From an uncultured Planctomycetaceae bacterium (lineage in GTDB: Bacteria > Planctomycetota > UBA8742 > UBA2392 > JABWBM01), in contig CAZJPQ010000003.1 of the NCBI GenBank assembly GCA_964548115.1, positions 490 to 64,489 on the forward strand: a stretch of 64,000 nucleotides of DNA, read 5' to 3'. Positions within the stretch are counted from its first letter, which is position 1; every line of letters starts with the position of its first letter. This document shows positions 4,459 to 64,000 of this stretch, piece by piece. The position numbers were made by a program, and so were the translations under genes. The notes under the pieces were generated by a model. The model searched no databases. It had not been told where the DNA came from and saw only the letters and a program-made list of their open reading frames with translations.

Positions 4459-4521
4459 GTTTTAAGACATTGCATTTTAATACCAGCTTTAAACTTTTAA
4501 CAGCTGTCACAAAGGATCTTG

Positions 4522-5406
4522 ATGAGCTCATCTGAACAGGAAAATGCGCTTGAATCACTCGAAGATATCGTGGGTGAAATAGGTGACTTGCCTACACTTC
4601 CAAGCGTAATCACACAAATTACCTCAATGACTTCAAACCCCCAGACAAACGCTGCTGATATTGGAAAGTTGATAGGAAATGACCCTTCCTTAAGCTCAAA
4701 AATTCTTAAGCTTATTAATTCTGCCTATTATGGCTTTCCTCGCAAGATTCAAAGCGTTACAAAAGCTATTGTTCTCCTGGGTTTTAATAAGGTGAAAAAT
4801 ATTGCCCTTTCAGCAAGCGTGCTTGATGCTTTCAAAGACAAAAATTCCCAAAGCATCCCAAACTTTGATTTCTATCAGTTTTGGGAACATTCGGTGAGTG
4901 TTGGGATCTGTGCTGAAGTCGTTGCAAAGCATACTCGAGCCCAGCTGACGGATGATGCTTTTATTGGTGGTCTGCTCCATGATGTTGGCAAGGTGATCAT
5001 TGCAATCTTTTTAGAAGAAGGGGCTGATATTTTCGCGAATGCTGAAGCAACAAAGCGTACCTTTTCCCAAGCAGCTTTAGAAAAAATTGAAATTGACGAA
5101 GCAAAAGTTGGAGCTTTACTGGCAGAACATTGGAACTTTCCAGAAAACCTTGTGCGTTCAATTCGCTACTCGATTCATCCTGATAAAACACGACAGTTTC
5201 GAGATGTGGTCGGTTGTATTCACCTTGGCAAGGTGTTAGCAAGCAGTCTTGGTTTTCCAGCCACTGGAGATCACGCCATGCCTGTTGTTTCAAGACAGGT
5301 ATGGGAGGAACTGGAACTGGAAGAAAGTAAGATCGAAGTGATGCTTCAAGATTCTTTGGTTGGTTTTCGTAATGCAACTGCCTTTCTGGAATTGGCCAAG
5401 GATTAA
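4522..5406 (+). CDS. HDOD-domain signalling protein
   Basis: ATG at 4522 preferred over the in-frame TTG at 4519; AAAGGA RBS upstream. Motifs LPTLPSVITQI, SAYYGF, GGLLHDVGK are typical of the HDOD domain. Confidence 0.75.
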   Translation: MSSSEQENALESLEDIVGEIGDLPTLPSVITQITSMTSNPQTNAADIGKLIGNDPSLSSKILKLINSAYYGFPRKIQSVTKAIVLLGFNKVKNIALSASVLDAFKDKNSQSIPNFDFYQFWEHSVSVGICAEVVAKHTRAQLTDDAFIGGLLHDVGKVIIAIFLEEGADIFANAEATKRTFSQAALEKIEIDEAKVGALLAEHWNFPENLVRSIRYSIHPDKTRQFRDVVGCIHLGKVLASSLGFPATGDHAMPVVSRQVWEELELEESKIEVMLQDSLVGFRNATAFLELAKD

Positions 5407-26043: not shown

Positions 26044-29000
26044 ATGACAAAACCACAACTCTCCTTTTCACCTTACTCCATACTCGTTGCACTTATAAGC
26101 TTGACTTTGGGTTCCCACGCCTGGGCGGACCATAGTCAATACCGCGGGAACGCAGCCAGAAGCGCTGGACTTGAGCAAACAGTTGACCTCTCTGACAGCT
26201 CAAAACTGACAGAACTTTACAGCACGACCCTTACCGCAAGTAATATCTTTGCTGAACCCCTGATCGTTGACCAGCTCTTGATTGTCGTAAGCGAAGGCGG
26301 TGATGTTATTTGTGTTGATATTGATTCAGGAACACCGGTTTGGTCTCAGAAGCTTAGCTCTGGAATCCTTGCTACTCCTGCAGTGGATAAAGGACGGCTC
26401 TTCGTTGGAACCACTGGTGGAAAAGTTGTAGCTTTCCAATTGAGTGATGGAGAAATACTTTGGGAAGTTTCACATGGTGGCTACCAGCTTGGTGCTCCTG
26501 TTGTCATTAATGATAAAGTAATTGTCAGCCCTGGCTTTGGAAGCGATTATCTCTTTGCTTATGACCAGAGAGATGGCTCTATTGTTTGGCAAGCCCCTGT
26601 CTCGCGAGACGTCCAAGGCTCACCTGCAGTCTATGATGACAAAGTTATAGTCGCGCTGCCAAACGGCGAAATTGACTGCTACCTCCTTAGTGATGGTTCA
26701 AAAGCTTGGGCTGCCCCTGTTCAAACCCAAGGAATCTTTTATGCCATCAGCCCAATGATTGTTCATGATTCTGATAGTGGAGAAATCTACGTCTATGTAG
26801 CCCCTGGCGGAGATGTAGAACGTAATAGCTCCAACTTATCATTGACTGGCTTCAAAGGTTATATGACCTATCGCATCAAGCTTGATGATGGAAGCTATGA
26901 TCGCTTGATACCAAGTCGAGATGCTTCTTATGCTGCCAGCAGCAGAAGCGCTCGAGCTAATGGAAAAACCAGCTCTGAAGTTGAACCAGAAGCCGATCCA
27001 TTGCGGGATATTCCCCACGACCTTCAAGCAGAACTCAACAAACTTACAGATCTTAACTCTATGCTCAGCGTTATCGAAGGCTACGAGCAAGAATACGGCC
27101 TTGACCTCAGTGAGCTTAAAGCGGCTTTAAAAGAGCGTAGTGATAATGCTAGCAGTTATTTAAAAGCTCAAGAAAAGGCAGAAGGAGCTGGAAAACGCTC
27201 CTCCGCAAGTTCAAGAGCAAGCCTCCCTGGCAGCTCCTTTGATGCGAACTGGCCAAGTGGTAATTCCGTTCGACCTGCTCCAGCAGCCTATCTTGAGCGA
27301 GGCAACAGTCGTTTTCTAGCAATTATGATGCGAGAAATTCCAAGCATTTCGATTAAAGCCCGGACTCTCCTTTTTAGTGTTAATGCAAGCACATTTGGAG
27401 AGCTTTACTGGCACTACAGCAGTGATAGTCTTGATACTCCAGCGACTATTAACAGTCAAGGGGCTTTACTTGTTCCAAATCAAAATGACCCCCATGGCGC
27501 CTATATGATAGCGCCCCTGGGTCGAAACATTGCGATCTTTGATGCTGCTTCTGGCAATACTCCTATTTTTGAAATCGAAATGCCCGGCATTGTTTATCAA
27601 ACACCAGCAATCGCAAATGGCTACTTTGCGATTACTGACACCAGCGGCCACCTTAAAGTTTTTTCAACAAACAACTCTGCACCTCAAGCACCAGTCATAA
27701 CAAGCCCAAATCAAGATCAAGATATCCTGCTGCCTGCTTCTGTAAAAGCAAGTTGGAACGCGGCTATTGATGATAGCGCACCTGTTGACATTCGCTATCA
27801 ATTCCGTTACGTTTTTAATGGTGATCTTGAAACCGAGTATACAGAAATTGAACTGCCTGCTGGCACAACCGAGTATATCTGGCCAACAACACCTGCAGCT
27901 GATACTACCGTTAGTTTCCAGGTACGAGGCATTGACGAAAATGGAGCGGTTGGATTTTTCAGCCCTGCTCGCAGCTTTACATTTCAAAAAGACATCATTC
28001 CCCCAGCTGCCATCAGCAACCTCGTAACAAGTTCAGGCCCGCTTGAAATTCAAGGCACTTTCGACCCAAGTCCTGACGAAGCACCCCAAGGAAGTGCTGA
28101 TGTTGCAGGCTACCGTATCAATGTCATTGAACAAGGAACAAATAACAGCTTTAGCCTTGAGATTGGCTTAACACATTCTTTCACCCTCAATGGCTCAGAT
28201 CCAAACACTCCAATGGATGCCAACCACCAATATGAGATTCATGTGGTTGCTTACGATGGACGTAATAACGAATCCCCAGCTCTAACGGTTTACGCTCAAC
28301 CAGACCCCGCAAATGATACCGTGGATACTCTTGCCCCATTCATTCTCAGTGCACACTTACTTGATCTTGATACTAATGGTGCTATTGAAACCGTTGAGCT
28401 GGTCTTCAGTGAGCCACTTGACAGTACTCTCGGAAATTTCGACTTTCAAGGCTTTGCGCTTGATGGCATAGCCCCAAGCAACGCCATTGGCCCAGTTAAC
28501 GAAACCTTAACCCTTAAGTTTGGAAACGGAGTAAGTGGTACAGATCTTAAAGAACTTACTTTTGATGCTTCAACTGGCCTGGTTCGCGATCTTTCAGGAA
28601 ATCTCCTTAAAACTCTCGGGAACAACGGTCTTAGTGAAATTGATGCTGCAAACCCCACATTCCTACCCCATACTTTAGAAGCCCATGATGACACTGGTAA
28701 TGGCAAACCAGATCGTATTACCGTTGACTTTTCTGAAGTTGTTGATGCTTCAAGCCTCGATCTTGATGATCTTGCATTACTCCAAGATTCCCAAGGGGCT
28801 TCCCTTAATGCACTTGATATGAGGCTGCTTGCAAACTCTATTACTCTCGAAATTGAGTTGGATGGTCAAAAAGGTGTGCTTGGAAAACCCTTGCTTGACT
28901 TTATTGATGATGGTGACGGCACCTTCTTCAGTGATGTTGTCGGCAACACACTTGTAAACAATCTTTCAAATCAACCCCCAAGCATTCGTTTAAGTCTTCA

Positions 29001-30909
29001 CCCAGGGGCTCATATGGCTCCTGGCTTACTTTCTTTGAGCACTACTGGAAGCAGCGACCCTGATGGAGATGATACTCAGCTTGTATACGACTGGAGCGTT
29101 GATCTCTTTGCTTCCAGCCAAGCTCCTGTCTTTTACCCATCAGGACAAAATTCACTTTCAACTTCTGAACAAGACGTTCAACTCATTCTCGTTGAGCCTG
29201 GAACCTATGGTTTTCGTCTCCAAGTCAGGGATGAACAGGGCGCTATTACCGAAGAAACAATTCAAGTGGTGGTTGCTAATGAAGCTCCTGTAGCCCATGC
29301 TGGGCCCGATCGCTTTTCTGAGCAGGCTCAAGGTTTAATCCCACTCATTGGCGAAAACAGCGCCGATGCAAACTCCTCCTTAAATTACAACGATATCCAA
29401 AGTTATCTTTGGAGTATCGTTGAAGCGCCAAGTGGTGCTTTTAACATCTTGAGTCAAACAACTTCAGCGCGAGCCTTCTTTGATACTTCAGGAGCACCAG
29501 TGGGGACATATCGCATCAATCTTGAAGTAAGAGACTACTCTGGTGTCAGCAGCACTGATGAGCTTTTCGTACATATCTTTGATGGCACCCTCAATATCCC
29601 TCCAACGGCTTATGCTGGACCTGACCGTTCATTACCACTTCAGGCAGGACAAGCCTCTTTAATACTTCAAGGAGGGTTCAGCTATGATGATCAAAAAACA
29701 ACTTTGAGCTACCAATGGGATCTCATCGAAGGTGATAGCACAAAAGTCCAAATGCATGATACCTTCAGTGCAACGACGAATCTTTCAATCCAAGCTCCTG
29801 GAAGCTACCAATTTCGTCTTCGCGTCAATGATGGCAGCTATGAAAGTGATGACTTTGTCTGGGTTGAAGTTTTTGACCCACAGGGTGATTATATTCCAAG
29901 TGGAGAGGTTATAGTTCCAGACTCAGCTTCCATAGGAGAAGTTTTTGAAATTGATATGAGTTCTTGCGTTGATATTGATGGCTCACCTGTGCTCGTTGAA
30001 CTCGAACAAAATGCTGGGCCTCGCTTAATCCAAGTTGAAGGCGCCCAAACAGCCAAACGCAAATACCTTGCTTATAGTTCAGGAATAGTTGAACTTCTTG
30101 TTCGCATTAACGATGGAGAGCACCGGTCTGCACCTCAATCGCTTCAGATTGCAATCCAAAGTGGAAGTAATTCTGCACCTGAACTTCAGATTGATTTGCC
30201 GAATACCTTAGAAATTGCTCAAGATCTTCATTTTGATCTTCAAGGCAGCAACGACAGCGAAGCCGATCCAATCAGCTTTGATTTCTATCAACTTGCTGGG
30301 CCTGCAGCTTCTTATGCAAAAGTTGCTGGACAAAACATAACTTTTAAAGGATTCCTTCCTGGAAACTATGCCTTTGAACTACGTGGGTCTGATGGTTTTT
30401 CACCGGCTTTGCCCCTTCGCGTTTCATTCACATTAGAAAGTGCCTCTGCGCATTTGCCTGAAGCCAGCATCACAACATCAACCCAAAGCCTTGATCTTGC
30501 CGCCAGCAATTCCTTTGCACTCTTCGCCGAACAAATCGTCGATCTTGACGGTGATATTGTCTCTTTCCTCTGGGTTCAAAATGCTGGCCCACAAGCTCAA
30601 ATTCTTGATCCGACAGCAAGCTCAACTGGTGTTGAACTCCCCCCAGTTGAAGGAGTTTATGTCTTTGAACTTTTCATTAATGATGGGACATTCCAAACAA
30701 GCGCTGGAACAACTTCACTATCTGTCTTTAATAGTGCTGCTCTTAAAGGTGATGTTTCTGCCCAGGAAGAAAGTTCTGGCTGCTCTTTGATCGGCGGAAC
30801 CTACGGAGGAATTGGATTTTCCTTAATCATACTTGGGATTATAGGCGCTGTCATTGGAATTTATATGAGTCTTATTCAGCGTAAAAAGCTGCCAAAACAA
30901 TCGGTATAA
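26044..30909 (+). CDS. Giant (1621 aa) secreted cell-surface protein: signal peptide, PQQ-type beta-propeller repeats, Fn3-like module, multiple PKD/Ig-like repeats, C-terminal Cys-containing TM sorting signal
   Basis: Signal peptide MTKPQLSFSPYSILVALISLTLGSHAWA. PQQ-like repeats (DGEILWEV, DGSIVWQA, DGSKAWAA). Repeated AHAGPDR / AYAGPDRS PKD-type motifs. C-terminal SSGCSLIGG-TM-RKK. Confidence 0.85.
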   Translation: MTKPQLSFSPYSILVALISLTLGSHAWADHSQYRGNAARSAGLEQTVDLSDSSKLTELYSTTLTASNIFAEPLIVDQLLIVVSEGGDVICVDIDSGTPVWSQKLSSGILATPAVDKGRLFVGTTGGKVVAFQLSDGEILWEVSHGGYQLGAPVVINDKVIVSPGFGSDYLFAYDQRDGSIVWQAPVSRDVQGSPAVYDDKVIVALPNGEIDCYLLSDGSKAWAAPVQTQGIFYAISPMIVHDSDSGEIYVYVAPGGDVERNSSNLSLTGFKGYMTYRIKLDDGSYDRLIPSRDASYAASSRSARANGKTSSEVEPEADPLRDIPHDLQAELNKLTDLNSMLSVIEGYEQEYGLDLSELKAALKERSDNASSYLKAQEKAEGAGKRSSASSRASLPGSSFDANWPSGNSVRPAPAAYLERGNSRFLAIMMREIPSISIKARTLLFSVNASTFGELYWHYSSDSLDTPATINSQGALLVPNQNDPHGAYMIAPLGRNIAIFDAASGNTPIFEIEMPGIVYQTPAIANGYFAITDTSGHLKVFSTNNSAPQAPVITSPNQDQDILLPASVKASWNAAIDDSAPVDIRYQFRYVFNGDLETEYTEIELPAGTTEYIWPTTPAADTTVSFQVRGIDENGAVGFFSPARSFTFQKDIIPPAAISNLVTSSGPLEIQGTFDPSPDEAPQGSADVAGYRINVIEQGTNNSFSLEIGLTHSFTLNGSDPNTPMDANHQYEIHVVAYDGRNNESPALTVYAQPDPANDTVDTLAPFILSAHLLDLDTNGAIETVELVFSEPLDSTLGNFDFQGFALDGIAPSNAIGPVNETLTLKFGNGVSGTDLKELTFDASTGLVRDLSGNLLKTLGNNGLSEIDAANPTFLPHTLEAHDDTGNGKPDRITVDFSEVVDASSLDLDDLALLQDSQGASLNALDMRLLANSITLEIELDGQKGVLGKPLLDFIDDGDGTFFSDVVGNTLVNNLSNQPPSIRLSLHPGAHMAPGLLSLSTTGSSDPDGDDTQLVYDWSVDLFASSQAPVFYPSGQNSLSTSEQDVQLILVEPGTYGFRLQVRDEQGAITEETIQVVVANEAPVAHAGPDRFSEQAQGLIPLIGENSADANSSLNYNDIQSYLWSIVEAPSGAFNILSQTTSARAFFDTSGAPVGTYRINLEVRDYSGVSSTDELFVHIFDGTLNIPPTAYAGPDRSLPLQAGQASLILQGGFSYDDQKTTLSYQWDLIEGDSTKVQMHDTFSATTNLSIQAPGSYQFRLRVNDGSYESDDFVWVEVFDPQGDYIPSGEVIVPDSASIGEVFEIDMSSCVDIDGSPVLVELEQNAGPRLIQVEGAQTAKRKYLAYSSGIVELLVRINDGEHRSAPQSLQIAIQSGSNSAPELQIDLPNTLEIAQDLHFDLQGSNDSEADPISFDFYQLAGPAASYAKVAGQNITFKGFLPGNYAFELRGSDGFSPALPLRVSFTLESASAHLPEASITTSTQSLDLAASNSFALFAEQIVDLDGDIVSFLWVQNAGPQAQILDPTASSTGVELPPVEGVYVFELFINDGTFQTSAGTTSLSVFNSAALKGDVSAQEESSGCSLIGGTYGGIGFSLIILGIIGAVIGIYMSLIQRKKLPKQSV

Positions 30910-31010: not shown

Positions 31011-32054
31011 TCATTCGTCTGGTTTTTGCTGAATAGCTTTTGCAATCACTTCGGAGAGTTCCAAATCAGGCGAAAGCACTCCTTCAGCATGGTAACTTGA
31101 ACGCACAAGAGGCCCTGAATCACATTTAGAAAAACCCTTTTCCAAAGCAAAAGCTTGAAGCTCCGCAAACTCATCTGGATGCACCCATCGCTCAATAGGC
31201 AAATGAGAACGTGTTGGCTGCAAGTATTGCCCTAAGCATAATACATCGCAACCTCTATCAGCAAGATCTTGAATTGCTTGCTTTGTTTCGCTTTGTTGTT
31301 CTCCAAGTCCCAACATCAGAGAAGATTTTGTCACAAGCCCTTCTCGTTTCGCCCGTTGGAGAATTTCCAATGATCGTTGATAAGTAGCTTGCGGACGGAC
31401 AGTAGGGTGCAAACGTTCAATTGTTTCAAGATTATGGGCAAAAACATGGGGACGGGCATCAAAAACTCGCTTTTGATTATCAAATTGTCCTTGAAAATCA
31501 GGCACCAGAACTTCGATGCCAAGTTCTGGACATGCGGCACGGACACGTGTTATGGTATCCGCCCAAACTTCTGATCCTCCATCTTTCAGATCATCTCGAT
31601 CAACACTTGTAATGACCACATAGCGCAGCTTCATCCACTGCACCATTTCAACCACACGCTCAGGCTCAAGACGATCATACTCCGTAGGACGCCCTGTTTT
31701 AACAGAACAAAAACCACATGAACGAGTACAAATATTTCCCAAAATCATGATTGTTGCTGTTCCAGCGGACCAACATTCTCCTCGATTCGGACAGTTTGCA
31801 GATTCACAAACGGTATGGAGCTTTTTCGTCTCAACAATGTGCTCTAACTCTTTCAGCTTTCCATGATTTGGTGTTTTCACTCGCATCCATGGTGGCCGCG
31901 AACCAAGGTCTGGATTAACTCGAACTTCTTTTTTGCCTGGACGATAACGACGAGAACGCTCTTCTGGCTTCCATATGACCGAATGCTCTTGAGCACGTGA
32001 CTGACTTTTAGTGTATTCTGACATACGAAATAAATTCCCACTCTTCTCGTGCAT
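31011..32054 (-). CDS. lipA: Lipoyl synthase (radical SAM)
   Basis: Radical-SAM CxxxCxxC as CTRSCGFC. N-terminal auxiliary-cluster cysteines CESANCPNRGEC. C-terminal RSSY motif. Confidence 0.95.
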   Translation of the reverse strand: MHEKSGNLFRMSEYTKSQSRAQEHSVIWKPEERSRRYRPGKKEVRVNPDLGSRPPWMRVKTPNHGKLKELEHIVETKKLHTVCESANCPNRGECWSAGTATIMILGNICTRSCGFCSVKTGRPTEYDRLEPERVVEMVQWMKLRYVVITSVDRDDLKDGGSEVWADTITRVRAACPELGIEVLVPDFQGQFDNQKRVFDARPHVFAHNLETIERLHPTVRPQATYQRSLEILQRAKREGLVTKSSLMLGLGEQQSETKQAIQDLADRGCDVLCLGQYLQPTRSHLPIERWVHPDEFAELQAFALEKGFSKCDSGPLVRSSYHAEGVLSPDLELSEVIAKAIQQKPDE

Positions 32055-35541: not shown

Positions 35542-37515
35542 ATGCCCGAAAGTCCTCTACCTCCCAGCTCTGCTTTCGAAAACTCAGAAGAGTGCTTGCT
35601 CCAAATCGAGTCATTTTTAGGAGAGTATGAAATTACGCAGGCAATCGAAACTTTGGAACAATGCATCAAGCATACCCCCAAGCTTCAAGACTCAAACATA
35701 TACTACTTCCTGAGGGGAAAAATTTCTCACGCCCAAGAACGTTACAAAGAAGCACGTCATCACTTTCGTACAATTTTAAAAGATCCTGAATGGAATGCTC
35801 GGGCTCACTACCACCTTGGTCGTGTTTGGCTTGATGCTGGCCGAATTGAACTTGCAGCCCAAGAATTTCTGCTGGTCATCAACCAACCAGAGGCTCTTTT
35901 ACCCTACAAGGTACACGCATATTCCGGTCTCTGTGTTGCTTATACTGGTCTGGGACGAAGTCAAAGTGCCGAACAGGCTATTGAACAAGCTGTTGATGCA
36001 GGGCTTATTTCTGGGCAACTTCTGGCCGACGAAGCTTTGCGACTCGAGATGGCCGGTTCGAGAGAAGCAGCAAAGGGTGAACTTGTTCGAGCTCTTGAAG
36101 TTGATGATAAATGCGAAAATGCTTTCTTCCAACTTTCAAACCTACTTTATATCGATGGAGAAGGAGAGCAGGCTCTCGACATCCTTCATTATGGAATAGA
36201 AAGTTGCCCACAATCAATTAAGCTTTTTTCTCTCTCAGGTGAGATTTATTTTTCTCAAAAAGCCTATAAGGATGCCAGCCTTGCTTATAGCCAGGCAATT
36301 CATTTTTCTCCTCAAGGTGCTAACGCTGACTCACTTCGTCTTCAGCTCGCTCGCTCGCTTTATCAAAATGGAGAGCAAAACCTTGCGGCACAAGAGCTTG
36401 AAAACCTTCTTAAAGAACATCCTCGCTCTGGTTTTCGTCGTCATGCAAAAGAAAGGCTCCAAAACCTTAAAAATCCTGGATCAGATCGAAAACACATCAT
36501 TTACAACTTTCCTCGAAAGCTTCAAAACCATGAGTACTGCGCCCCTAATACTTTAGCAAACCTCTTTGCTTTTTACGGATTAGAAAGCTCTCAAGAAGAA
36601 ATTGGGGCTGAGATTTTTACCCAAGGCACACGCTGGCATGATTTAGTAGCCTTTCTCAAAGAGCAAAAAGACCTTGAAACACATATCTTCTTAAGCGATC
36701 TTGAGCAACTCAAAGTCCTTCTAGATCACAGTATCCCTTTGATCGTTGGAGAATACTCAGGGCTTGATGGTCATTGCATTGCCCTTATTGGCTATGACGA
36801 TACTCTTGGAGTTGTCTATGCTCAGGATCCACTTTTTTTTGAACCTGTAGAGATAAGCTATCAACACTTTATGCTCTCATGGTTGCATACTGACAAACTT
36901 GTTGTTTTAACTGCCCCCCAGGACATCATTGCAAACATAAAACCAAGCTTCCATCAAGAAGCTCTCCTTGAAAATTGGCTTCAAGCCTTAGAACTTCAGT
37001 CAAATGAAAAAGTGACTCAAAGCTTTTCCTTGTTTGAAGATCTCCTTGCTACCGCACCAGAGCTTCAGATCCTCAGACGCAGTGCTGTTGAAAGCGCAAT
37101 TATGCTCCAAAATTGGGATCAGGCCAAAACACTTTTGGATTCGCTTCTTGATCAAGGTTCCAGCCCATTCTGGGCCTTACGATATGCTGGAGATATCGCC
37201 TTTCAACGCACAGAATTAGACCTGGCTCTTCATTATTATACTCAAGCCACTCGCATCTTTCCAAATGATCCTGTTCTTCACTATATTCGAGGGGAAATTT
37301 CACTTCTTCAAGGAAACACCCAAAAAGGTCGAGCTCAACTTTCCAAAGCACTTGAAATAGAGCCAACCCTTATTCCACCAAGAGTTCGCCTAGCTCAAAC
37401 CTACAAAAAAACAAATGACTTTAAAAAGGCTCGTTATCACAGTCTTGGAGTACTTGAACTCGAACCAGAAAATGTGGAAGTAAAAGCCATACTTGAAGAA
37501 CTTGATAAGTCTTGA
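35542..37515 (+). CDS. TPR-repeat protein with an embedded papain-like (peptidase C39-like) cysteine peptidase domain
   Basis: TPR arrays occur at both ends. The central segment IYNFPRKLQNHEYCAPNTLANLFAFYGL ... LDGHCIALIGYDD matches the C39_2 Cys box (C-[GA]-P-x-[ST]-L-A) and the His box (GH-x-[IV]-x-[LV]-x-GYD). No signal peptide is evident. Confidence 0.7.
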   Translation: MPESPLPPSSAFENSEECLLQIESFLGEYEITQAIETLEQCIKHTPKLQDSNIYYFLRGKISHAQERYKEARHHFRTILKDPEWNARAHYHLGRVWLDAGRIELAAQEFLLVINQPEALLPYKVHAYSGLCVAYTGLGRSQSAEQAIEQAVDAGLISGQLLADEALRLEMAGSREAAKGELVRALEVDDKCENAFFQLSNLLYIDGEGEQALDILHYGIESCPQSIKLFSLSGEIYFSQKAYKDASLAYSQAIHFSPQGANADSLRLQLARSLYQNGEQNLAAQELENLLKEHPRSGFRRHAKERLQNLKNPGSDRKHIIYNFPRKLQNHEYCAPNTLANLFAFYGLESSQEEIGAEIFTQGTRWHDLVAFLKEQKDLETHIFLSDLEQLKVLLDHSIPLIVGEYSGLDGHCIALIGYDDTLGVVYAQDPLFFEPVEISYQHFMLSWLHTDKLVVLTAPQDIIANIKPSFHQEALLENWLQALELQSNEKVTQSFSLFEDLLATAPELQILRRSAVESAIMLQNWDQAKTLLDSLLDQGSSPFWALRYAGDIAFQRTELDLALHYYTQATRIFPNDPVLHYIRGEISLLQGNTQKGRAQLSKALEIEPTLIPPRVRLAQTYKKTNDFKKARYHSLGVLELEPENVEVKAILEELDKS

Positions 37516-40513: not shown

Positions 40514-40665
40514 GATAATGAACATAAAAAAGAATGCTTGATAAGTTACCTTTGAACAAGCGAACAAAAAAACTTTGGATCTTTATTCATAGAGGTTTTT
40601 GAGCTAGACTTTAGCTTTGCTAAAAGTTTTTGTCTCTATACAAAGTCTTAAAGAAAAGAGTTGTA

Positions 40666-41646
40666 ATGGCTAGCTATCAAGAACTCCAAGGAAAAAATGT
40701 TCGTTCCTCCTTTTTGCTGATTGGAGTCGTGACAACTCTTATGCTTGTCGGAGGCTACCTTTTTGGAGCAGCACTTGCGGGCCCAGAAAATCCTTATGCC
40801 ATGTGGATTGGGGTAGGAATTGCAGGCGGACTTGCCAGCATTCAAGCTTTGATTTCCTGGTTTGCTGGAGCAGATATTGTTCTCAAAGTCAATCGAGCAA
40901 AAGAAGTGAGCGAGCACGACAGTGAATTTCGCCAGCTTCGAAATATTGTAGAAGAGATAAAAATTGCAGCTGGTCTTCCCATGCCTCGCGTTTATGTCAT
41001 CCATGACGATTCGCCAAACGCTTTTGCCACTGGACGCAACCCAGAAGATGGGCGTGTTGCATTTACAACTGGACTTCTACAGCGCTTGAATCGAGATGAA
41101 CTTCAAGGTGTGGTCGCCCATGAACTTGCCCATATCAAAAATCGAGATATTTTATTTGCAACCATTGTAGGCATTATGGTTGGAAGTATTGCTATTCTTT
41201 CCGATATTATGCTGCGCTTCTTTTTCTGGAACAGTTTATTTGGAGGAAGGCGAAACAGTGACAATCGTTCTGGAGGAGGCCAACTCCAAGCCATCCTGAT
41301 GCTGGTAGGGCTTATCTTTGCAATTCTAGCCCCCATCGCCGCCATGCTGATTCAGTTCGCAATCTCTCGCCAGCGTGAATACTTAGCCGATACAAGTGGC
41401 GCACATTTCACCCGCAACCCAAGTGGACTAGCAAGTGCTTTACTCAAAATCTCAAGTGCAGCTCAGCCTCTTCGTTCTCCTAACCGAGGGACTGCTCACC
41501 TCTTTATTTCAGATCCTTTTTGCCACCAGGCCCGCTCGACAAAAACAAAAGGAAGTCTTTTTTCAACCCATCCACCAATCGCAAAACGTATTGAGCGACT
41601 CCAAAAAATCGGATCAATGGATATGCAAGAAAGTCCGCAACCTTAA
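40666..41646 (+). CDS. htpX: Zinc metalloprotease HtpX (M48 family)
   Basis: HELAHIKNRD (HExxH). Downstream E in EYLAD. Two N-terminal TM helices. ATG at 40666 preferred over the track's TTG at 40630. Confidence 0.9.
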   Translation: MASYQELQGKNVRSSFLLIGVVTTLMLVGGYLFGAALAGPENPYAMWIGVGIAGGLASIQALISWFAGADIVLKVNRAKEVSEHDSEFRQLRNIVEEIKIAAGLPMPRVYVIHDDSPNAFATGRNPEDGRVAFTTGLLQRLNRDELQGVVAHELAHIKNRDILFATIVGIMVGSIAILSDIMLRFFFWNSLFGGRRNSDNRSGGGQLQAILMLVGLIFAILAPIAAMLIQFAISRQREYLADTSGAHFTRNPSGLASALLKISSAAQPLRSPNRGTAHLFISDPFCHQARSTKTKGSLFSTHPPIAKRIERLQKIGSMDMQESPQP

Positions 41647-41708: not shown

Positions 41709-43586
41709 ATGAATGCTTTCTCTCAAAATACTGAAGCTCTCAAAAATATTCAACCAATCTTGGCAGAAACACTTGAGACAGCAACAAGCTTAGCCCAATA
41801 TCTTCAAGAAACTCCAGATGGCTCCCAAACCTTACGCAAAAAAGGCTTTGAAGGTGCCTGGCTTCAAAGCAGACGTGCGCCACTTCAAGAAGCCAGGCGG
41901 ATGGTTGAAAAAATTCAGCTTAAGCCCTTGCAACCTTGTATCGTAATCGGTGTAGGCCTTGGGTATGTCATCAAAAACCTGATTAAAAATTCTCCTTCAA
42001 CACAAATCATTGTACTTGAAAATGATCTTAATTTGCTGCGAACCGTACTTGAGCTCCATAATTTCTCCAACTCTATTCGACAAGGGCGTTTGAGTTTTGC
42101 TCTTGATTTACCTGGCCAACCTATTTCAGCTGTACTTGATTTCTTCGCAGAAGCCCTTAATTATCACGGCTACCAAAGTATATTTCACGCATATACGCAA
42201 AACGATCGTAATTATAAGGATCTCTTCTCAGAGCTGGGAAATTGGGTGCGTCTTCGGGCTGTTGATATTCGAACTCAAATGTTTCAATCTCGGGTATCTC
42301 TTGAAAACCTGATCAACAATCTTCCCCATTATCTTCAGTTCCCGGGAATAACGGAATTTAAAGATTGCCTCCGTGATGTTCCTGCCGTGATGGTAGGCTC
42401 AGGCCCTTCTTTGAATCGAAATATTAACGTGCTTAAAGAGTATAGTGGCCATGTTTTTGTATTGGCTGTTTCTTCTGCGCTTCAGCGAATTATGAAAGAA
42501 GGGATTCCTGTTCATGCCACAAACATTGTTGATTACTCACGTTTAAGCTCGCGCTATTTCGTTGACCTTCCTGGAGAAGCTCCTCCTCTTTGGGCACATC
42601 CTCGTGCAAGCTCAGAAGTTCTTGATCTTTACCAGGGGCCAAAAATACTCCTTGATGATGAGCTCTATCGTAAGCTGCTTGAAGCAACCGTTCCTGACCA
42701 CGGAACGTTCATCGCCCAAGGAAATAACGTCTCCCACTACGCATTTCTTATCCTTCAACACCTTGGCTGCAATCCCATTATTTTCTGTGGCATGGACCAA
42801 GCCTACAGCTTTCACACAACACATACACCAGGAAGTCCTTTTCATGATGATTGGGTCGCAGCAAACAACCGCTTCTTCAATCATGAGCTCTCAGAACTTA
42901 TCATGTTAACCTCGCTTGTTAACGAAACCCTGACAACAACCGACATGTACGGCAATACAATTCTTACTGATAACCTTTTTGACAGCTCTGCAACCGTGCT
43001 TGAACAACTCGTTGGATTCTTCCCTGAAACGACTGTACTCAACGCAACAGAAGGTGGCAGAAGACTCAAAGGAGTAAAAGATCTTAGCCTGAGAAATGTT
43101 TTAGAACAATACGCCAAGCAACCGCTCGCACTTGATTCCTATTGGGAAAAAGTCCATCTTCCTAAAAAAGCAACTCAAGCCTTTTTGCACAATGGTCTTC
43201 AAAAACTTCAAAAAATTAAAACCTTTGGAACAACCCTTCAAGAAGTATTTTCACAAGCCAAGCGCATCATTCAGAAAGCTGAGAAAAAACTCTTAAAGGG
43301 AGAAGAGCCAACAGAGCTTGCAGACGCTCTTGACCGTCTTAACGATAAACTTAATAAACAGCCTGGAGTTTATGATGCTGTTTATACCTATGCTGCTGCA
43401 GATGGCATTATCCGGCAAAAGAGTGAAGCTCTCTTAGCTGATCAGTCGATTCCTATGATTGAACGCCTTCGAACTTTAGCAAAACGAGAAAAAGCCTTTA
43501 TTATTGCGCTTGAAGAAGCATTAAAACGTTGGGAAGATCTCTTGATAAAAGGGATTGAGCGCATGAAAGAAGAGCAGGAATTTTAA
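41709..43586 (+). CDS. Maf-like (motility-accessory-factor / MptE-like, DUF115) protein; putative nucleotide-sugar or nonulosonic-acid transferase-like enzyme
   Basis: DUF115 Rossmann-like core with the signature VPAVMVGSGPSLNRNI ... VFVLAVSS ... ATNIVDY. About 625 aa, similar in size to Campylobacter/Helicobacter Maf proteins. ATG at 41709 preferred over the track's TTG at 41670. Confidence 0.65.
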   Translation: MNAFSQNTEALKNIQPILAETLETATSLAQYLQETPDGSQTLRKKGFEGAWLQSRRAPLQEARRMVEKIQLKPLQPCIVIGVGLGYVIKNLIKNSPSTQIIVLENDLNLLRTVLELHNFSNSIRQGRLSFALDLPGQPISAVLDFFAEALNYHGYQSIFHAYTQNDRNYKDLFSELGNWVRLRAVDIRTQMFQSRVSLENLINNLPHYLQFPGITEFKDCLRDVPAVMVGSGPSLNRNINVLKEYSGHVFVLAVSSALQRIMKEGIPVHATNIVDYSRLSSRYFVDLPGEAPPLWAHPRASSEVLDLYQGPKILLDDELYRKLLEATVPDHGTFIAQGNNVSHYAFLILQHLGCNPIIFCGMDQAYSFHTTHTPGSPFHDDWVAANNRFFNHELSELIMLTSLVNETLTTTDMYGNTILTDNLFDSSATVLEQLVGFFPETTVLNATEGGRRLKGVKDLSLRNVLEQYAKQPLALDSYWEKVHLPKKATQAFLHNGLQKLQKIKTFGTTLQEVFSQAKRIIQKAEKKLLKGEEPTELADALDRLNDKLNKQPGVYDAVYTYAAADGIIRQKSEALLADQSIPMIERLRTLAKREKAFIIALEEALKRWEDLLIKGIERMKEEQEF

Positions 43587-43808
43587 AGTCACCATTAAAA
43601 GGATAATATCATTCAAACCACTATTGATGCTTATATTGAAATTCCCGAAACAGAGGATGTCTTAAAAGCCTTTGTTGGAGATGAAAGTTATTCTCCTTTT
43701 AGTTTAGCGTTAAGTGCACTTCTTCACACCCGCAGTGCATTCCGATCAATCTTCCTGCCCTGGCCAGGTGGCAAAGAAAACCTTCCAAGCCATTCCGGCA
43801 TCCAGGCA

Positions 43809-45278
43809 ATGGTTCAAGAGGCTAAGATCAAGGTTATCGAACCATCACAAGCACCCGATATTGATGCACGAAAAGTTGGAAACGCTCTTCGAAAGTGGAA
43901 CCACACAAGTTCTTTAGCGGGTCTTCTGATGACAACGGATCACTGCACGTATGGAAACCCTGCACATATCCTTCAAGCATTAGAGCCTCAAGAACCTGAT
44001 TATGTACTGGTGCTTCCAGGGCATCACGGTTTTCCAACAAGCCAAGCAATCAAGATTATCCTTGAACAAGGCTTCACTGATGGCTGGGGGTTAGGGTTTT
44101 ATATTGCTGAAGGACCAAGGGGATTAAGCCCTATTATTTGGAAAGTTTCCAGCCTTAAGGAAGTACTTGCAAACAACCTGCTTGCTCAATCCGCTTTTTG
44201 GGGGCGCTGGCACTATTGGGTTAAAACAACAGCTTCAATGCCTTCACGAGTTACTCGTTGTCGACGAGACTTTGACCTTCGCACCCGCAGAGGAAGAGCT
44301 TTTTGTTCTGAAGTCGCTTCCGCTCTTCATGCAAGAAAGAAAATGCCAGCTTATCATCCAGAGAATCACACGCCTTTGCCATTGGAAGACATTATTGAGG
44401 CTGCAAACTCTTGTTTTCAGGCTTGGGTCGGTGATACTCCTCGTGATATTGAAATTGAGATTACAACCCAACGTCCACTGGAACCGAGTTATCTTCCAAA
44501 AATCAATCGTCCAAACCTCCATATGGAGCTTGCTCATTTTGAACGGTTTATCGCTCAGTGCAAGCAGGATAACGACTCTATCAACCTAACGCTCGGAGGT
44601 TTTGGTGATCCTTTAGAGCATCCTGAAGTTCTTGATTTCATTCGATCTGCGAGACCCCATGTTCAAGGCCTCAACATCCGAAGCTTTTGCTTCGAAATGG
44701 ATGAGCAAAAATTTGCAGCGCTTCAAGAAGCTGGAATTGACGTCCTTACCTGGCGTTTTGGTTACTGGGGAAAGGAAGCACACCAAAAAGCCCACGGAGT
44801 CGATGATTTTGAAAGGCTACAAGAAACTTTAAGGTCCATACGAACACAGCAACTCCACGAAGCTGAGGATGCTTTGCCGATTATTTGTCCAGAGGTTGTC
44901 AAAGGCATTATTGGAGATAAAAGCCTACTTGATTTTTGGGAGTATTGCCTTTCGCTTTTGCTTTGGCCAAGTCTTCTCAGCTATAATACTTTTTGTGGTG
45001 AGCTTCCATCTCAACAAGCTATCCCGCTTTACCCCAGTACTCGCAGCACCTGTCTTAAAATCTCAGAACAATTGATTGTTTGTGCAAATGGTGAAGTTCC
45101 CATGTGCTGGCAAGACTTCAACGCAAAGAACTCTCTTGGCAACATCAAAGAACATTCCCTACAAGAACTCTGGCATAGCCCAAAACTAACCGCTCTTCGC
45201 AACGCCCACGAACAAAAGCAATGGGATCGGGAATCTGCTTTATGTCAAAAATGTAATGAATGGTTTCGTTTGAGCTAA
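43809..45278 (+). CDS. Radical-SAM-fold/SPASM-domain protein with a degenerate radical-SAM cluster site (only one of the three CxxxCxxC cysteines present)
   Basis: C-terminal SPASM/twitch region IVCANGEVPMCWQDF ... LGNIKEHSLQELWHSP ... CQKCNEWF. GGxPL-like SAM motif LGGFGDPLEHPEV. Where CxxxCxxC is expected the sequence is ELAHFERFIAQCKQDNDSI. Confidence 0.6.
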   Translation: MVQEAKIKVIEPSQAPDIDARKVGNALRKWNHTSSLAGLLMTTDHCTYGNPAHILQALEPQEPDYVLVLPGHHGFPTSQAIKIILEQGFTDGWGLGFYIAEGPRGLSPIIWKVSSLKEVLANNLLAQSAFWGRWHYWVKTTASMPSRVTRCRRDFDLRTRRGRAFCSEVASALHARKKMPAYHPENHTPLPLEDIIEAANSCFQAWVGDTPRDIEIEITTQRPLEPSYLPKINRPNLHMELAHFERFIAQCKQDNDSINLTLGGFGDPLEHPEVLDFIRSARPHVQGLNIRSFCFEMDEQKFAALQEAGIDVLTWRFGYWGKEAHQKAHGVDDFERLQETLRSIRTQQLHEAEDALPIICPEVVKGIIGDKSLLDFWEYCLSLLLWPSLLSYNTFCGELPSQQAIPLYPSTRSTCLKISEQLIVCANGEVPMCWQDFNAKNSLGNIKEHSLQELWHSPKLTALRNAHEQKQWDRESALCQKCNEWFRLS

Positions 45279-45306: not shown

Positions 45307-45774
45307 ATGAGAAAACTAATGGAATGGAAAACATTTCTCCGCGATCAAATAGAACAAGCATATCAATCAACCCATGAGTTGATAACATTAGTTGAAGATC
45401 AAGATCTTCACTACTGTCCTGGTGATCATAATTGGATGAGGCTTGACCAGCTGCTTTGGCATATAACCATTGCGTGTGGACGATGCTGTGTTTGCATGAT
45501 TGAAGATGACTGGAGTGATAACCCCTGGCATCAACTTCCCTCTGTCACTTCTGTTCAAGAAGCTCTCAAGCGTCTTGAAGAAGACAAAGTGCTTGCCCTT
45601 GATGCCCTTGAAACTCTAAGCGAAAATGAGTTAGAAGAAAAGCTTTACGCTCCCCCCTGGGAAGCAACCCCTCAAAAGCTTGGGATTCGGTTTTACCAAA
45701 TGATAAAGCACCTTCAATTTCATCGTTTTCAACTTTTGTTTTATTTTCGACTTTCAGGTAAACCTCTCGAATAA
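45307..45774 (+). CDS. DinB/YfiT-like four-helix-bundle protein (putative metal-dependent thiol transferase/hydrolase fold)
   Basis: 155 aa. Helical pattern and the LLWHITIA histidine region resemble DinB_2. Unusual CGRCCVC cysteine cluster. Confidence 0.45.
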   Translation: MRKLMEWKTFLRDQIEQAYQSTHELITLVEDQDLHYCPGDHNWMRLDQLLWHITIACGRCCVCMIEDDWSDNPWHQLPSVTSVQEALKRLEEDKVLALDALETLSENELEEKLYAPPWEATPQKLGIRFYQMIKHLQFHRFQLLFYFRLSGKPLE

Positions 45775-49400: not shown

Positions 49401-49685
49401 TTATCTTTTGCGTGATGACTTTTTAGCTACTTTTTTCTTGGCGACTTTCTTAGCAGGCTTTTTCTTTGCTACTTTTTTCTTGGCCACCTTCTTGGCAGGC
49501 TTTTTCTTCGCTACTTTTTTCTTGGTTGCTTTCTTTGCTACTTTTTTCTTGGCCACTTTTTTCTTGGTTGCTTTCTTTGCAACCTTCTTCTTTGCGACCT
49601 TTTTCTTCGCTACCTTTTTCTTTGCCACCTTCTTGGCGACTTTCTTTTTGGCTACCTTCTTCTTAGCCACCTTTTTCTTTGCCAT
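49401..49685 (-). CDS. Histone H1 / Hc1 / AlgP-like lysine-rich DNA-binding protein (KKVAKKK tandem repeats)
   Basis: ATG at 49685 preceded by a perfect AGGAGG, which trims the hydrophobic MIFFFWYCVGGC leader in the track ORF. Ninety-four residues, almost entirely [AT]KKKVAKKK repeats. Confidence 0.8.
   Translation of the reverse strand: MAKKKVAKKKVAKKKVAKKVAKKKVAKKKVAKKKVAKKATKKKVAKKKVAKKATKKKVAKKKPAKKVAKKKVAKKKPAKKVAKKKVAKKSSRKR
49420..49680. repeat. Intragenic tandem nucleotide repeats (about 21-24-nt units encoding KKVAKKK)
   Basis: Repeated ttcttggccac(c)ttcttggcaggctttttctt-type units throughout the gene. Coding repeats, not CRISPR: no unique spacers. Confidence 0.7.
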
Positions 49686-49887
49686 ACATCCTCCTACACA
49701 GTACCAAAAAAAGAAAATCAAACTTTCGGACTTACCCGACCCTTAAAAAAAGTTATTATTCCTATCATCATCAAACGGTCAAAACCTTTTCTGAAATTCA
49801 CGAGAACTTTCTCTACCTACGTTTTCAAAAATAGTTTTAAAACAAAAGCAAGCCCTTTAAAAATCAAGTACAGGAGCGGATGAACTC

Positions 49888-61566: not shown

Positions 61567-62130
61567 TTATTCCACTGGAACCAGCACTCCTTCGTGAAGC
61601 CTATAATGCTCTCCACTCTCCGGACAACAAAGATCATCCCCTAATACACGCCCCAAACGAGAAACCCAACCCAAAAGTCGAGCTGGCACCCCAACCATTA
61701 AAGCATAAGCTGGTACATCCTTTGTTATAACGGCTCCCGCAGCAACAAAAGCATACTCTCCAATAGTATGACCACAAAGGATGGTACTGTTTGCTCCTAG
61801 ACTTGCTCCACGTTTAACGCGTGTTGGCAAGAATTCCTCTTTACGCTCAACAAAAGCCCGAGGCGTATGAACATTGGTAAAGACCATAGAAGGACCACAA
61901 AACACCTGGTCTTCAAGAATGACACCATTATAAAGAGAAACATTATTTTGAATTTTGCAGCCCGCACCAACTTCAACCCCACCAGCAACAAAACAGTTTT
62001 GGCCCAGGATGCTTCCTCTGCCGATACGAGTATCACCCATCACATGACAAAAATGCCAGATTTTAACATCATCTTCCAACACGGCTCCCTGATCAATAAT
62101 CGCGCTGGGGTGAATATAAGGCTCTGCCAT
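61567..62130 (-). CDS. Hexapeptide-repeat N-acetyltransferase, WbpD/WlbB-like (UDP-2-acetamido-3-amino-2,3-dideoxy-glucuronate N-acetyltransferase family)
   Basis: PYIHPSAIIDQGAVLEDDVKIWHFCHV ... CKIQNNVSLYNGVILEDQVFCGPSMVFTNV ... LGANSTILCG ... YALMVGVPAR closely tracks my recollection of the WbpD sequence. ATG at 62130 preferred over the track's TTG at 62157. Confidence 0.8.
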   Translation of the reverse strand: MAEPYIHPSAIIDQGAVLEDDVKIWHFCHVMGDTRIGRGSILGQNCFVAGGVEVGAGCKIQNNVSLYNGVILEDQVFCGPSMVFTNVHTPRAFVERKEEFLPTRVKRGASLGANSTILCGHTIGEYAFVAAGAVITKDVPAYALMVGVPARLLGWVSRLGRVLGDDLCCPESGEHYRLHEGVLVPVE

Positions 62131-62182
62131 AGCAATACCTTTCTCTTCAAGTTTCAAACTTAATATACTGTCTCACTGCAAT

Positions 62183-63478
62183 TCAGCCCTGCTTAGCCTC
62201 AAGAAGAACATCAAAAGTTCTTGCTAATTGAGAGCAAAGCGCCTTACGCTCAAAACGCTTCAAACCTGCTTCTACTCTTTTCTTTCCAAGTTCGGACGCC
62301 TCCCTGCTTCCTTTTTCCCATTCTTGATAGCAGGCTCGAATTGCCTCGGCACACCCCTTAATATCTCCCGGCTCAACCACATAACCAGCATCAAACTCCT
62401 GAACCAGCTCTGCAATCTCACCCCCTAAGGGAACAACGGCTAGAATCGGAACCCCTGAGCGCAGGTATTCAAAAATCTTGCCGCCTGGAACCCGAAGAGC
62501 TTCTGGGTTGTCATCTAAAAAGACCCCAGCCATATCAGCGCTGCGTAATGCTCTAAGAGCATCCTGATGACTTTGGTATCCTAACAAACACACTTCTTTT
62601 TCAAGTCCTAACTGCAAACGCAACGCCTGGTACTCCTCACTCAAAGCTCCAATATGCTCAAAACGAATGTTAAAGGTTTTTCCTTCTGCTTGAAACTCCT
62701 GCTTCAGCTGCGCTAAAGCCTGCCAACACGTTCGAGGACAAACATAAGCATAAAGCATCCCAATAAAACGTAAGCAAAAGAAAAGCTTCTCTCTCTCTCT
62801 GCTTTGAGCAATAGCTTTATCTTTAAAATCTGCCTCATCATAGCCATTATAAAGTGCCTGAAAAAAAGCCTCTGGTTTATTGGGATAGCGCTCTAGAAAC
62901 TTTTGGCGAATTCCTTCTGATACAGATATCACTTTTGATGCTCCTTCTATACACTTTCTCTCAAAAGCTTCAATCTGGTCCTGTTCTTGTTTGCTCCTCT
63001 GGTCCTTTAAAAAAGGGTGGTTAGCCCATTCATCCCGAAAGTCAAATACAAGAGGAATATCCTGCCCCTGGGTAAGCTTGAGAACCGATAAGAAAGTACT
63101 GAATGGAGCAGCGCTGACAAAAATCAAATCGCTTTGAGGCAGCTTTGGTTTCAAGACTTTCAAGAGCTTCTCACTCCAAGCCTCTTGGCTGTCAAGCTGA
63201 TTGCTTTGAAAAACCCTCTCAAAGAATTGAGGGAAAAACCGACGTCCTATTCTTTGCAACAAGCTTTCTCGTGGGTCTTTGATACGAACCACTCGTATGC
63301 TTGCTGGCACTTCAAGCAAGCCCGCCTGATCATGAAAAGCTGTCTTGGCATCTGCAACACTGACAACTTCTGGCTGCCAGCCAAAGTCTGGCAGGTACTT
63401 CACGTATTTCAGAGAGCGCTGCGTTCCCCCACTGGCAAGCGGAGGAAAGTGATAAGCTATAAAGAGTACCCGTTTCAT
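62183..63478 (-). CDS. GT4-like glycosyltransferase
   Basis: ATG start. N-terminal IAYHFPPLASGGTQRS. Conserved GT-B fold segments. Start codon abuts the stop of the upstream oxidoreductase gene. Confidence 0.75.
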   Translation of the reverse strand: MKRVLFIAYHFPPLASGGTQRSLKYVKYLPDFGWQPEVVSVADAKTAFHDQAGLLEVPASIRVVRIKDPRESLLQRIGRRFFPQFFERVFQSNQLDSQEAWSEKLLKVLKPKLPQSDLIFVSAAPFSTFLSVLKLTQGQDIPLVFDFRDEWANHPFLKDQRSKQEQDQIEAFERKCIEGASKVISVSEGIRQKFLERYPNKPEAFFQALYNGYDEADFKDKAIAQSREREKLFFCLRFIGMLYAYVCPRTCWQALAQLKQEFQAEGKTFNIRFEHIGALSEEYQALRLQLGLEKEVCLLGYQSHQDALRALRSADMAGVFLDDNPEALRVPGGKIFEYLRSGVPILAVVPLGGEIAELVQEFDAGYVVEPGDIKGCAEAIRACYQEWEKGSREASELGKKRVEAGLKRFERKALCSQLARTFDVLLEAKQG

Positions 63479-63480
63479 GG

Positions 63481-64000
63481 TTACACTCGAATACTCCTGT
63501 TATGCTTCAAATCTTTAGAAAGCTCCTCTAACGCTTCGACCACTGCTAAGCCACTTTGGATACTGCTTCGGGGAGTTTGCCCAGATGTTAATGCTTCCAA
63601 AAAATCTTTGGCTTCAAGTTTCAAAGGTTCGGTCATGGCAATGTCTGGAGCATAGACCTCTCCGGAACGCACACTCAAAGCAGCCATAAACCCCTGATAA
63701 TCGTCTTCTCTCCGCTTCTGCACGCTTTTATCGTAAATACGCAATTTTTCACGGGGTTGCATATCGTCAAAAACGAGCATCTTCTCTTCGCCTACAACTA
63801 CAAGCTCTCGGCGCTTATCAGGATCAAGCCAGGAGAAATGAAAATGTGCACTCAACCCCCCTTCATACAGGAGCTGAGCAAAGACCACGTCCTCAAGCTC
63901 TTCTGCTTTATCAATACATATGATACCGCTTGCTCTTGCCCGTTCCAGCTTTGGATAATCGAGCAAATAATTGACCATCGAAAGATCATGAGGCCCCAAG
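63481..64000 (-). CDS. Gfo/Idh/MocA-family oxidoreductase (WbpB-like sugar-nucleotide dehydrogenase candidate), 5'-partial: N-terminal Rossmann domain lies beyond the window edge
   Basis: Only the C-terminal alpha/beta dimerisation domain is visible, in frame to position 64000 with no plausible start. Operonic with the GT4 and WbpD-like genes. Confidence 0.7.
   Translation of the reverse strand, partial: LGPHDLSMVNYLLDYPKLERARASGIICIDKAEELEDVVFAQLLYEGGLSAHFHFSWLDPDKRRELVVVGEEKMLVFDDMQPREKLRIYDKSVQKRREDDYQGFMAALSVRSGEVYAPDIAMTEPLKLEAKDFLEALTSGQTPRSSIQSGLAVVEALEELSKDLKHNRSIRV

Follow-up and report, generated by a model that had tools for sequence, protein, structure and literature searches.

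A Maf-type glycosyltransferase and a radical-SAM-fold partner that has lost its SAM-cluster cysteines: a candidate two-subunit ulosonic-acid transferase in Planctomycetota

Maf glycosyltransferases are the main bacterial route by which sialic-acid-like sugars reach flagellins; their reconstitution has proved difficult, which has led to the suspicion that components are missing (bioRxiv 10.1101/2023.12.03.569772). It was shown that Maf-2 requires GlfM, an obligate specificity factor that is encoded in cis (Unay, Kint and Viollier, bioRxiv 10.1101/2023.12.03.569772). No Maf partner of the type described here is mentioned in two surveys of flagellin glycosylation islands (one of them PMC13317340). 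We analyzed a 64-kb stretch of the genome of an uncultured Planctomycetaceae bacterium (contig CAZJPQ010000003.1; this whole stretch is called the window below), in which a gene for a 625 amino acid (aa) Maf-type protein (41709-43586, + strand) is followed on the same strand by a gene for a ~556-aa protein, hereafter the partner, with a radical S-adenosylmethionine (SAM) fold and a truncated SPASM domain (43608-45278). A first-pass annotation of the window had put the two genes forward as an undescribed modification system. In the literature on spiro-SPASM proteins, on radical SAM together with nonulosonic acid and flagellin, and on SPASM together with Maf or DUF115, no published description of the pairing was found, as that annotation had supposed. 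Yet the Maf protein and its partner are probably a two-part version of known protein glycosylation and not an entirely new modification system. With moderate confidence we read the locus as a two-subunit Maf-type protein glycosyltransferase for an ulosonic acid activated with cytidine monophosphate (CMP), in which the partner acts without radical chemistry. Relatives are cited below by the labels of their protein clusters (P000x) and loci (L0xx).

By its sequence profile and its predicted structure, the product of the first gene is a full-length Maf-family glycosyltransferase. The DUF115 assignment made at first pass from the core motif VMVGSGPSLNRNI (residues 227-239; 42387-42425, +) holds, with a match to Pfam MptE-like/DUF115 (PF01973) at residues 199-367 (104 bits, E=1e-29) and a second one to Maf_flag10_N (PF20157) that exceeds its cutoff (27.8 against 23.5 bits). 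The ATG at 41709 agrees as a start with the N-termini of the homologues. Single-sequence phmmer against the PDB sequences gave no match and a profile search was needed; the sequence profile matches PDB 5MU5, the Maf protein of M. magneticum, with E=1.3e-11. The AlphaFold2 (AF2) model, with a mean predicted local distance difference test (pLDDT) of 89.4, has 5MU5 as its sole Foldseek match in the PDB at E<=0.001 (E=1.2e-18). This match runs over the full length (714 alignment columns) with a template-modelling (TM) score of only 0.50, which probably results from differing domain orientations. Three motifs that are invariant in 28 Maf relatives are present in the window protein (G232-P-S-L235, G361xD363 and T447-E-G-G450); the latter two lie in the invariant GMDQA (42789-42803, +) and ATEGG (43044-43058, +) stretches. 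As all the family-invariant core motifs are intact, the protein is presumed to be catalytically active. Its named relatives are annotated as 'motility associated factor glycosyltransferase family' and are at most 29% identical, and it fails the NCBIfam test for PseD (NF050051; 83.6 bits, cutoff 670).

The Pfam family is named for archaeal MptE, and one can ask whether the DUF115 protein is an MptE-like pyrophosphokinase or another nucleotide-using enzyme, working with the partner in a pterin or metallocofactor pathway. Its profile does match the M. jannaschii HPPK weakly (8SD5, E=5e-4), and the second-best NCBIfam match of the partner is a tungsten-cofactor radical-SAM maturase (39 bits). However, HPPK covers only ~200 residues, whereas the three-domain architecture of the whole 625-aa chain is that of the Maf 5MU5; the Maf_flag10_N domain is present as well, and the genes around the relatives belong to sugar biosynthesis and not to pterin biosynthesis. 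We regard this explanation as extremely improbable.

The gene model of the partner had to be corrected. In the public gene call (P0001) the protein has 489 aa and begins at the ATG at 43809, 67 codons too late, and the first-pass annotation had placed a 222-bp intergenic gap in front of it, with a possible precursor-peptide gene in 43587-43808. This supposed intergenic region is coding sequence for the conserved N-terminus of the partner. In the frame of ATG 43809, positions 43599-43808 are free of stops and encode IIQTTIDAYIEIPETEDVLKAFVGDESYSPFSLALSAL...; the first stop upstream in this frame is a TAA at 43596-43598. In an alignment with all close homologues the segment matches their N-termini, and D7, A8, E11, F22, G24, S29, P30, L38 and I48 are invariant; homologues of the partner are ~50-90 aa longer at this end than the 489-aa call. 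In the model, the recovered segment is a confidently folded piece of the N-terminal domain (pLDDT 85-93). The open frame and the alignment together mean that the partner has ~556 aa and not 489, and that the real gap is 21 bp (43587-43607, +), which leaves no room for a precursor peptide. The spacer holds the in-frame TAA and a Shine-Dalgarno sequence, AAGGA (43599-43603). No in-frame ATG, GTG or TTG is present in 43599-43808, and the candidate starts are ATC 43608 and ATT 43611, located 4 and 7 nt past the AAGGA; in close relatives the ATG of the partner overlaps the Maf stop by 4 bp (ATGA), or the genes are fused. Either translation really begins at a codon other than ATG or the metagenome-assembled genome (MAG) has a base error here (ATG to ATT), and this non-canonical start is what led to the truncated public annotation.

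The pairing of the two genes is real and not a chance arrangement, since adjacency is nearly general and natural fusions exist. When the gene neighbourhoods were compared, as had been proposed at first pass, 61 of the 65 informative loci (non-redundant, with 2.2 kb or more of sequence ahead of the partner) had a Maf gene directly before the partner gene, in the same orientation, at a median gap of 18 bp. The exceptions are L036, L058, L092 and a true spiro-SPASM locus, L015. In every genome-derived locus with upstream sequence the gene just ahead of the partner is Maf, also when the identity of both proteins to those of the window is no more than 23-27%. Full-length Maf::partner fusions of 1136-1199 aa are found in six cluster representatives at 50% identity, and the L008 fusion reads through without a stop codon. 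A seventh fusion, P0155, is present on 13 contigs and is thus not an assembly artefact. The split and the fused module occur together in one assembly in two cases, L001/L024 (GCA_026647195.1) and L007/L008 (MAG_30); such paralogues in single genomes recall Campylobacter and Shewanella, which have multiple Maf paralogues.

Other neighbours that might have belonged to the module were dismissed. The first-pass annotation had correctly placed htpX upstream (40630-41646, +) and a DinB-like gene, DinB_2, downstream (45307-45774, +). Of these, htpX recurs only in L006 and DinB_2 is found elsewhere only ~7 kb away, in L004; none of the other neighbours in the window recurs beside the pair in other loci. 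In L019 an 'orf110' between Maf and partner looked like a third component and is the C-terminal helical region of Maf. Clustering of open reading frames (ORFs) with masking found no small ORF that recurs beside the pair across loci. In 32 loci of one subfamily (L026-L102) aat, the gene for Leu/Phe-tRNA protein transferase (PF03588), is directly upstream of Maf (for example L037 7284-8012); within its ORF cluster (23 loci) the median distance from its end to the Maf start, on the same strand, is 14 bp. This adjacency is probably lineage synteny, and the tight spacing suggests co-transcription.

The AF2 model of the corrected partner (pLDDT 87.6, predicted TM score 0.89) shows three domains: a cytidylyltransferase fold (residues ~1-275; 43608-44432, +), a radical-SAM fold (residues ~276-470; 44433-45017, +) and a twitch-type truncated SPASM domain (45033-45275, +). 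The N-terminal domain has a nucleotidyltransferase fold with detectable profile homology to CTP_transf_3, and Pfam CTP_transf_3 gives no match in the window protein. Alignment with hhalign against the true enzymes encoded nearby in relatives shows that the loop binding cytidine triphosphate (CTP; ARxGSKGxPGK), with its conserved Arg and Lys, is absent. The domain carries two conserved motifs, APPGL and RKW..WRGG, the latter a family-specific insertion. In the core, the protein scores under the cutoff for Pfam Radical_SAM (PF04055). The SAM-cluster site is degenerate, DIEIEITTQRPLEPSYLP (44445-44498, +), with zero cysteines; the CX3CX2C position itself reads TTQRPLEPSYLP. A GGE-like motif, LTLGGFGDP, is kept (44586-44612, +). 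At the C-terminus, Pfam SPASM matches with E=5e-12 to 6e-12 and the four cysteine ligands C482, C500, C546 and C549 (codons 45051-45053, 45105-45107, 45243-45245 and 45252-45254, +) form the pattern CX12GX4C (=CX17C) ... CX2C, with the chain ending 7 residues past C549. The canonical seven-cysteine SPASM pattern CX9-15GX4C...CX2CX5CX3C...C is not present, as the partner has no CX5CX3C; what remains fits a twitch domain with one cluster. Over 103 aligned family members the only invariant columns are these four cysteines and R479.

The label of SPASM radical-SAM homologue given at first pass was thus right as to the SPASM domain and the fold, and 'radical-SAM homologue' applies to the partner at fold level only. 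The loss of the SAM site is general. CX3CX2C is absent from 108 of the 113 family members inspected (the window protein included) and intact in five, P0144, P0018, P0028, P0143 and P0152. Judged from its residues, the partner keeps an auxiliary [4Fe-4S] cysteine site and has lost the SAM-cluster site. Without a SAM-binding [4Fe-4S] site, canonical 5'-deoxyadenosyl radical chemistry is not expected of it.

An exhaustive profile search (E<1e-30) collected 183 cluster representatives of the partner family. Organism names are on record for few of these clusters, and the members that have one are all Planctomycetota (Planctomycetaceae, Planctomycetia and Phycisphaerae). Among the NCBIfam models, spiro-SPASM (TIGR04321) scores highest for the window partner, and likewise for each of the ten further members that were scanned. 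With 110 bits the window protein stays below the cutoff of 250, and its match covers profile positions 188-506 only; among the eleven proteins P0144 alone passes the cutoff (382 bits), and its CX3CX2C site reads TNDCNLSCVFCA.

The genes found near the pair in relatives point to the sugar donor. At least one gene that is NeuA-like (CTP_transf_3), NeuB or NeuC-like (Epimerase_2) stands beside the pair, within the fetched flanks, in 14 of 98 non-redundant loci. By a rough estimate, the nonulosonic-acid cluster of a genome falls in a random 20-kb neighbourhood well under 1% of the time, and compared with this the sugar genes are strongly enriched near the pair, although the link is not obligatory. 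The gene order in L020 is Maf, partner, a 139-aa ORF, CTP_transf_3, a B12-binding radical-SAM gene and NeuB, and in L022 it is Maf, partner, CTP_transf_3 and Epimerase_2. NeuB, NeuC-like and/or CMP-transferase genes also adjoin the pair in L009, L013 and L014. L017 has the C-terminus of a Maf (hidden Markov model E=8e-19), a partner with intact CX3CX2C and CTP_transf_3. In the true spiro-SPASM locus L015 a CTP_transf_3 gene lies two genes downstream and no Maf is found within 8 kb. It was reported that nonulosonic-acid synthases are present in Planctomycetes (PMC8208679). Published work also shows that the genes for Maf and for its sugars need not lie at flagellar loci; a flagellar location is a typical and not an obligatory feature of Maf (PMC13317340).

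Several further genes were seen in these neighbourhoods. The B12-binding radical-SAM gene of L020 (8856-10328), between the CMP-transferase gene and NeuB, is a candidate sugar-tailoring enzyme, and it is present though the locus's own partner protein has lost the radical-SAM motif. HDOD-domain signalling proteins are encoded near the pair in 13 of the 98 loci (for example L020 1149-3251 and L074 5606-6619), in several of them between the pair and the NeuC/NeuB genes. In L024 an HDOD gene and a PAS-kinase gene lie ~3.7-5.4 kb upstream of the fused module. The window also has an HDOD gene (4519-5406), together with a PAS histidine kinase gene (5529-7208), ~36 kb from the pair. A regulatory link between HDOD proteins and the pair is possible. 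Rotamase genes of the SurA/peptidyl-prolyl isomerase (PPIase) type occur near family members (L015 1985-3013 and L086 17086-18342), and one of them shares 4 bp with the beginning of the true spiro-SPASM gene.

In the window itself, Pfam scans of ORFs of at least 150 aa, with tblastn probes for NeuA-, NeuB- and NeuC-like proteins and for flagellin, found no nonulosonic-acid gene and no flagellar or flagellin gene, in agreement with the first reading of the window. This absence was one reason to suggest a system unrelated to nonulosonic acids. In it, the DUF115 transferase and a SPASM-type maturase, of the peptide or redox kind, would together modify something other than flagellin, for instance the giant surface protein or the lysine-rich protein, and a small precursor might be encoded in the space between the two genes. 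The pairing is unreported, which suits such a system, and a non-flagellin acceptor is possible. On the other side, the region between the genes is coding and no small ORF recurs beside the pair; the partner lacks the SAM-cluster cysteines that a peptide-modifying enzyme would use, and its N-terminal domain has a cytidylyltransferase fold and no peptide-recognition element. Nothing connects the pair with either of these two proteins of the window, and the window's neighbour genes, htpX in L006 excepted, do not recur beside the pair. The pair of distant relatives is embedded in NeuA/B/C-type clusters, which speaks against independence from nonulosonic-acid chemistry. We consider such a system very unlikely.

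Starting from the gene structure, the folds, the motifs lost and kept, the adjacency, the fusions and the sugar-gene linkage in relatives, we propose the following mechanism. The partner may descend from a bifunctional-looking enzyme with a cytidylyltransferase-like domain and a radical-SAM/twitch domain. This enzyme type survives, with intact CX3CX2C, in the spirochaete spiro-SPASM family and a few relatives. In the window lineage, and in ~95% of the family, the three cysteines of the SAM cluster and the loop for CTP are lost, and the four cysteines of one auxiliary [4Fe-4S] site are kept. Maf and partner would form one complex. Its donor would be a nonulosonic acid or a related ulosonic acid, activated with CMP and synthesized by the products of genes outside this locus, and its acceptor would be Ser/Thr of a protein that is also encoded elsewhere; flagellin is the default candidate by family precedent. 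The donor is proposed because of the partner's ancestry and because NeuA/B/C genes adjoin the pair in relatives. In this complex the partner could serve to bind the donor, to set specificity or to lend stability, all without radical chemistry, in a role like that of GlfM. A non-radical subunit is the most economical reading because both the SAM cluster and the CTP loop are lost.

Several points weigh against this proposal. No nonulosonic-acid gene lies within reach either in the 64 kb of the window or in the closest clade (L001-L008, L024). No flagellin was found in 1.26 Mb of neighbourhoods with the E. coli FliC sequence as probe, which may miss divergent flagellins. Complex formation is deduced from fusion and adjacency only, and 80 metagenome loci belong to one mid-distance subfamily and are not phylogenetically independent. 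In addition, the four cysteines, R479, RKW..WRGG and APPGL are kept more strictly than a passive scaffold needs, and the partner may be catalytic.

This last point leads to another option, that the partner is still an enzyme which tailors the CMP-sugar through its [4Fe-4S] cluster, with no SAM-radical start or with a non-canonical use of SAM, and then passes the donor on to Maf. The tailoring could be an oxidation, a dehydration, an epimerisation or similar. The nearest structural relatives of the partner include the sugar-acting twitch/radical-SAM enzymes BtrN, BlsE, DesII and SpeY, and the cluster cysteines with R479 are its sole invariant positions, next to a conserved LTLGGFGDP and the conserved N-domain motifs. 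Moreover, a member with intact CX3CX2C is also paired with a Maf and a CMP-transferase gene (L017), which makes sugar tailoring a plausible ancestral role. But ~95% of the members are without the SAM-cluster cysteines, the Pfam Radical_SAM score is below the cutoff and the catalytic loop of the cytidylyltransferase is missing; no case is known to us, either, in which a twitch cluster by itself carries out catalysis. An enzymatic partner of this kind seems to us rather unlikely. Still, the strict retention of the four cysteines leaves room for residual catalysis or sensing. A more far-reaching idea, which we regard as doubtful, is that the partner is a working iron-sulfur subunit and the pair a new class of two-subunit protein ulosonic-acid transferase with non-flagellar surface targets in Planctomycetota. 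If so, the twitch cluster and the CMP-sugar-like domain would tailor the donor, possibly CMP-Kdo (3-deoxy-D-manno-octulosonic acid) or a legionaminic-type sugar, without SAM-radical chemistry, or would make glycosylation of the protein responsive to iron, oxygen or redox state.

Around these genes the window consists of ordinary chromosomal DNA, with pheT, leuS, atpG, typA, prs, pth, the genes for ribosomal proteins L25 and L9, ssb and trxB; no tRNA gene and no Rfam match was found in it. At 61567-63999 (-), ~16 kb from the pair, an amino-sugar or polysaccharide cluster seems to begin, with genes for a GT4 glycosyltransferase, a hexapeptide acetyltransferase and, truncated at the edge of the window, a GFO/IDH/MocA oxidoreductase; a second GT4 gene is located at 2711-3814. 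A 106-aa protein (49401-49721, -) consists almost entirely of KKVAKK repeats and weakly resembles the histone H1-like protein HC2 (24 bits, cutoff 40). Another protein, of 657 aa (35542-37515, +), has many TPR repeats around a Peptidase_C39-like domain (residues 322-430). A separate and apparently conventional radical-SAM gene (31011-32054, -; Pfam E=3e-17) adjoins the gene for a 1621-aa PQQ-propeller/PKD protein (26044-30909), and no relation to the pair was seen.

The pair belongs to a large unnamed family in which Maf is accompanied by, or fused to, an iron-sulfur partner of clear enzymatic ancestry. In the search for missing components of Maf systems, the partner is a concrete candidate for a second kind of accessory subunit. 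It is also a clean natural case of a radical-SAM enzyme that lost its SAM cluster and kept its auxiliary cluster. For the uncharacterised spirochaete spiro-SPASM family the locus offers a functional lead, ulosonic-acid chemistry. The flagellin of Treponema denticola bears an elaborately acylated nonulosonic acid (PMC13439194), which makes a sugar-tailoring role plausible for the true spirochaete enzymes.

The locus differs from several known systems. Unlike the radical-SAM/SPASM maturase systems of ribosomally synthesized and post-translationally modified peptides, it has no precursor gene, no peptide-recognition domain and no active radical-SAM site. From the twitch enzymes BtrN and SpeY and the SPASM enzymes anSME, SuiB and SkfB the partner differs in being without the SAM-binding [4Fe-4S] site. 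It has in common with spiro-SPASM proteins (TIGR04321) the length, the extra N-terminal domain, the radical-SAM-like core and the C-terminal SPASM/twitch cysteines; the true member P0144 keeps CX3CX2C and has no adjacent Maf, whereas the window partner has no CX3CX2C and scores below the cutoff. With the CMP-nonulosonate and CMP-Kdo synthetases (CTP_transf_3; NeuA, PseF, KdsB; 6OEW) it has the N-domain fold and profile homology in common, and it differs from them in the absent CTP-binding loop and the RKW..WRGG insertion. The GlfM-Maf-2 tripartite system of flagellin sialylation is likewise a Maf with a conserved accessory protein encoded in cis, and the splitting of its accessory function into bipartite and tripartite forms parallels the split and fused forms seen here. 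GlfM is a small predicted four-helix bundle, whereas the partner has 556 aa, three domains and a conserved iron-sulfur site, and there is no homology between them; the resemblance would be one of functional analogy only. Finally, the Maf flagellin glycosyltransferases (5MU5, Maf1 of Aeromonas caviae and PseD/PseE of Campylobacter) have the three-part architecture and the core motifs in common with the window protein. The latter stands apart from all named Mafs by its low identity (<=29%), by its place outside any flagellar or glycosylation island and by its consistent pairing with, or fusion to, a 550-aa iron-sulfur protein.

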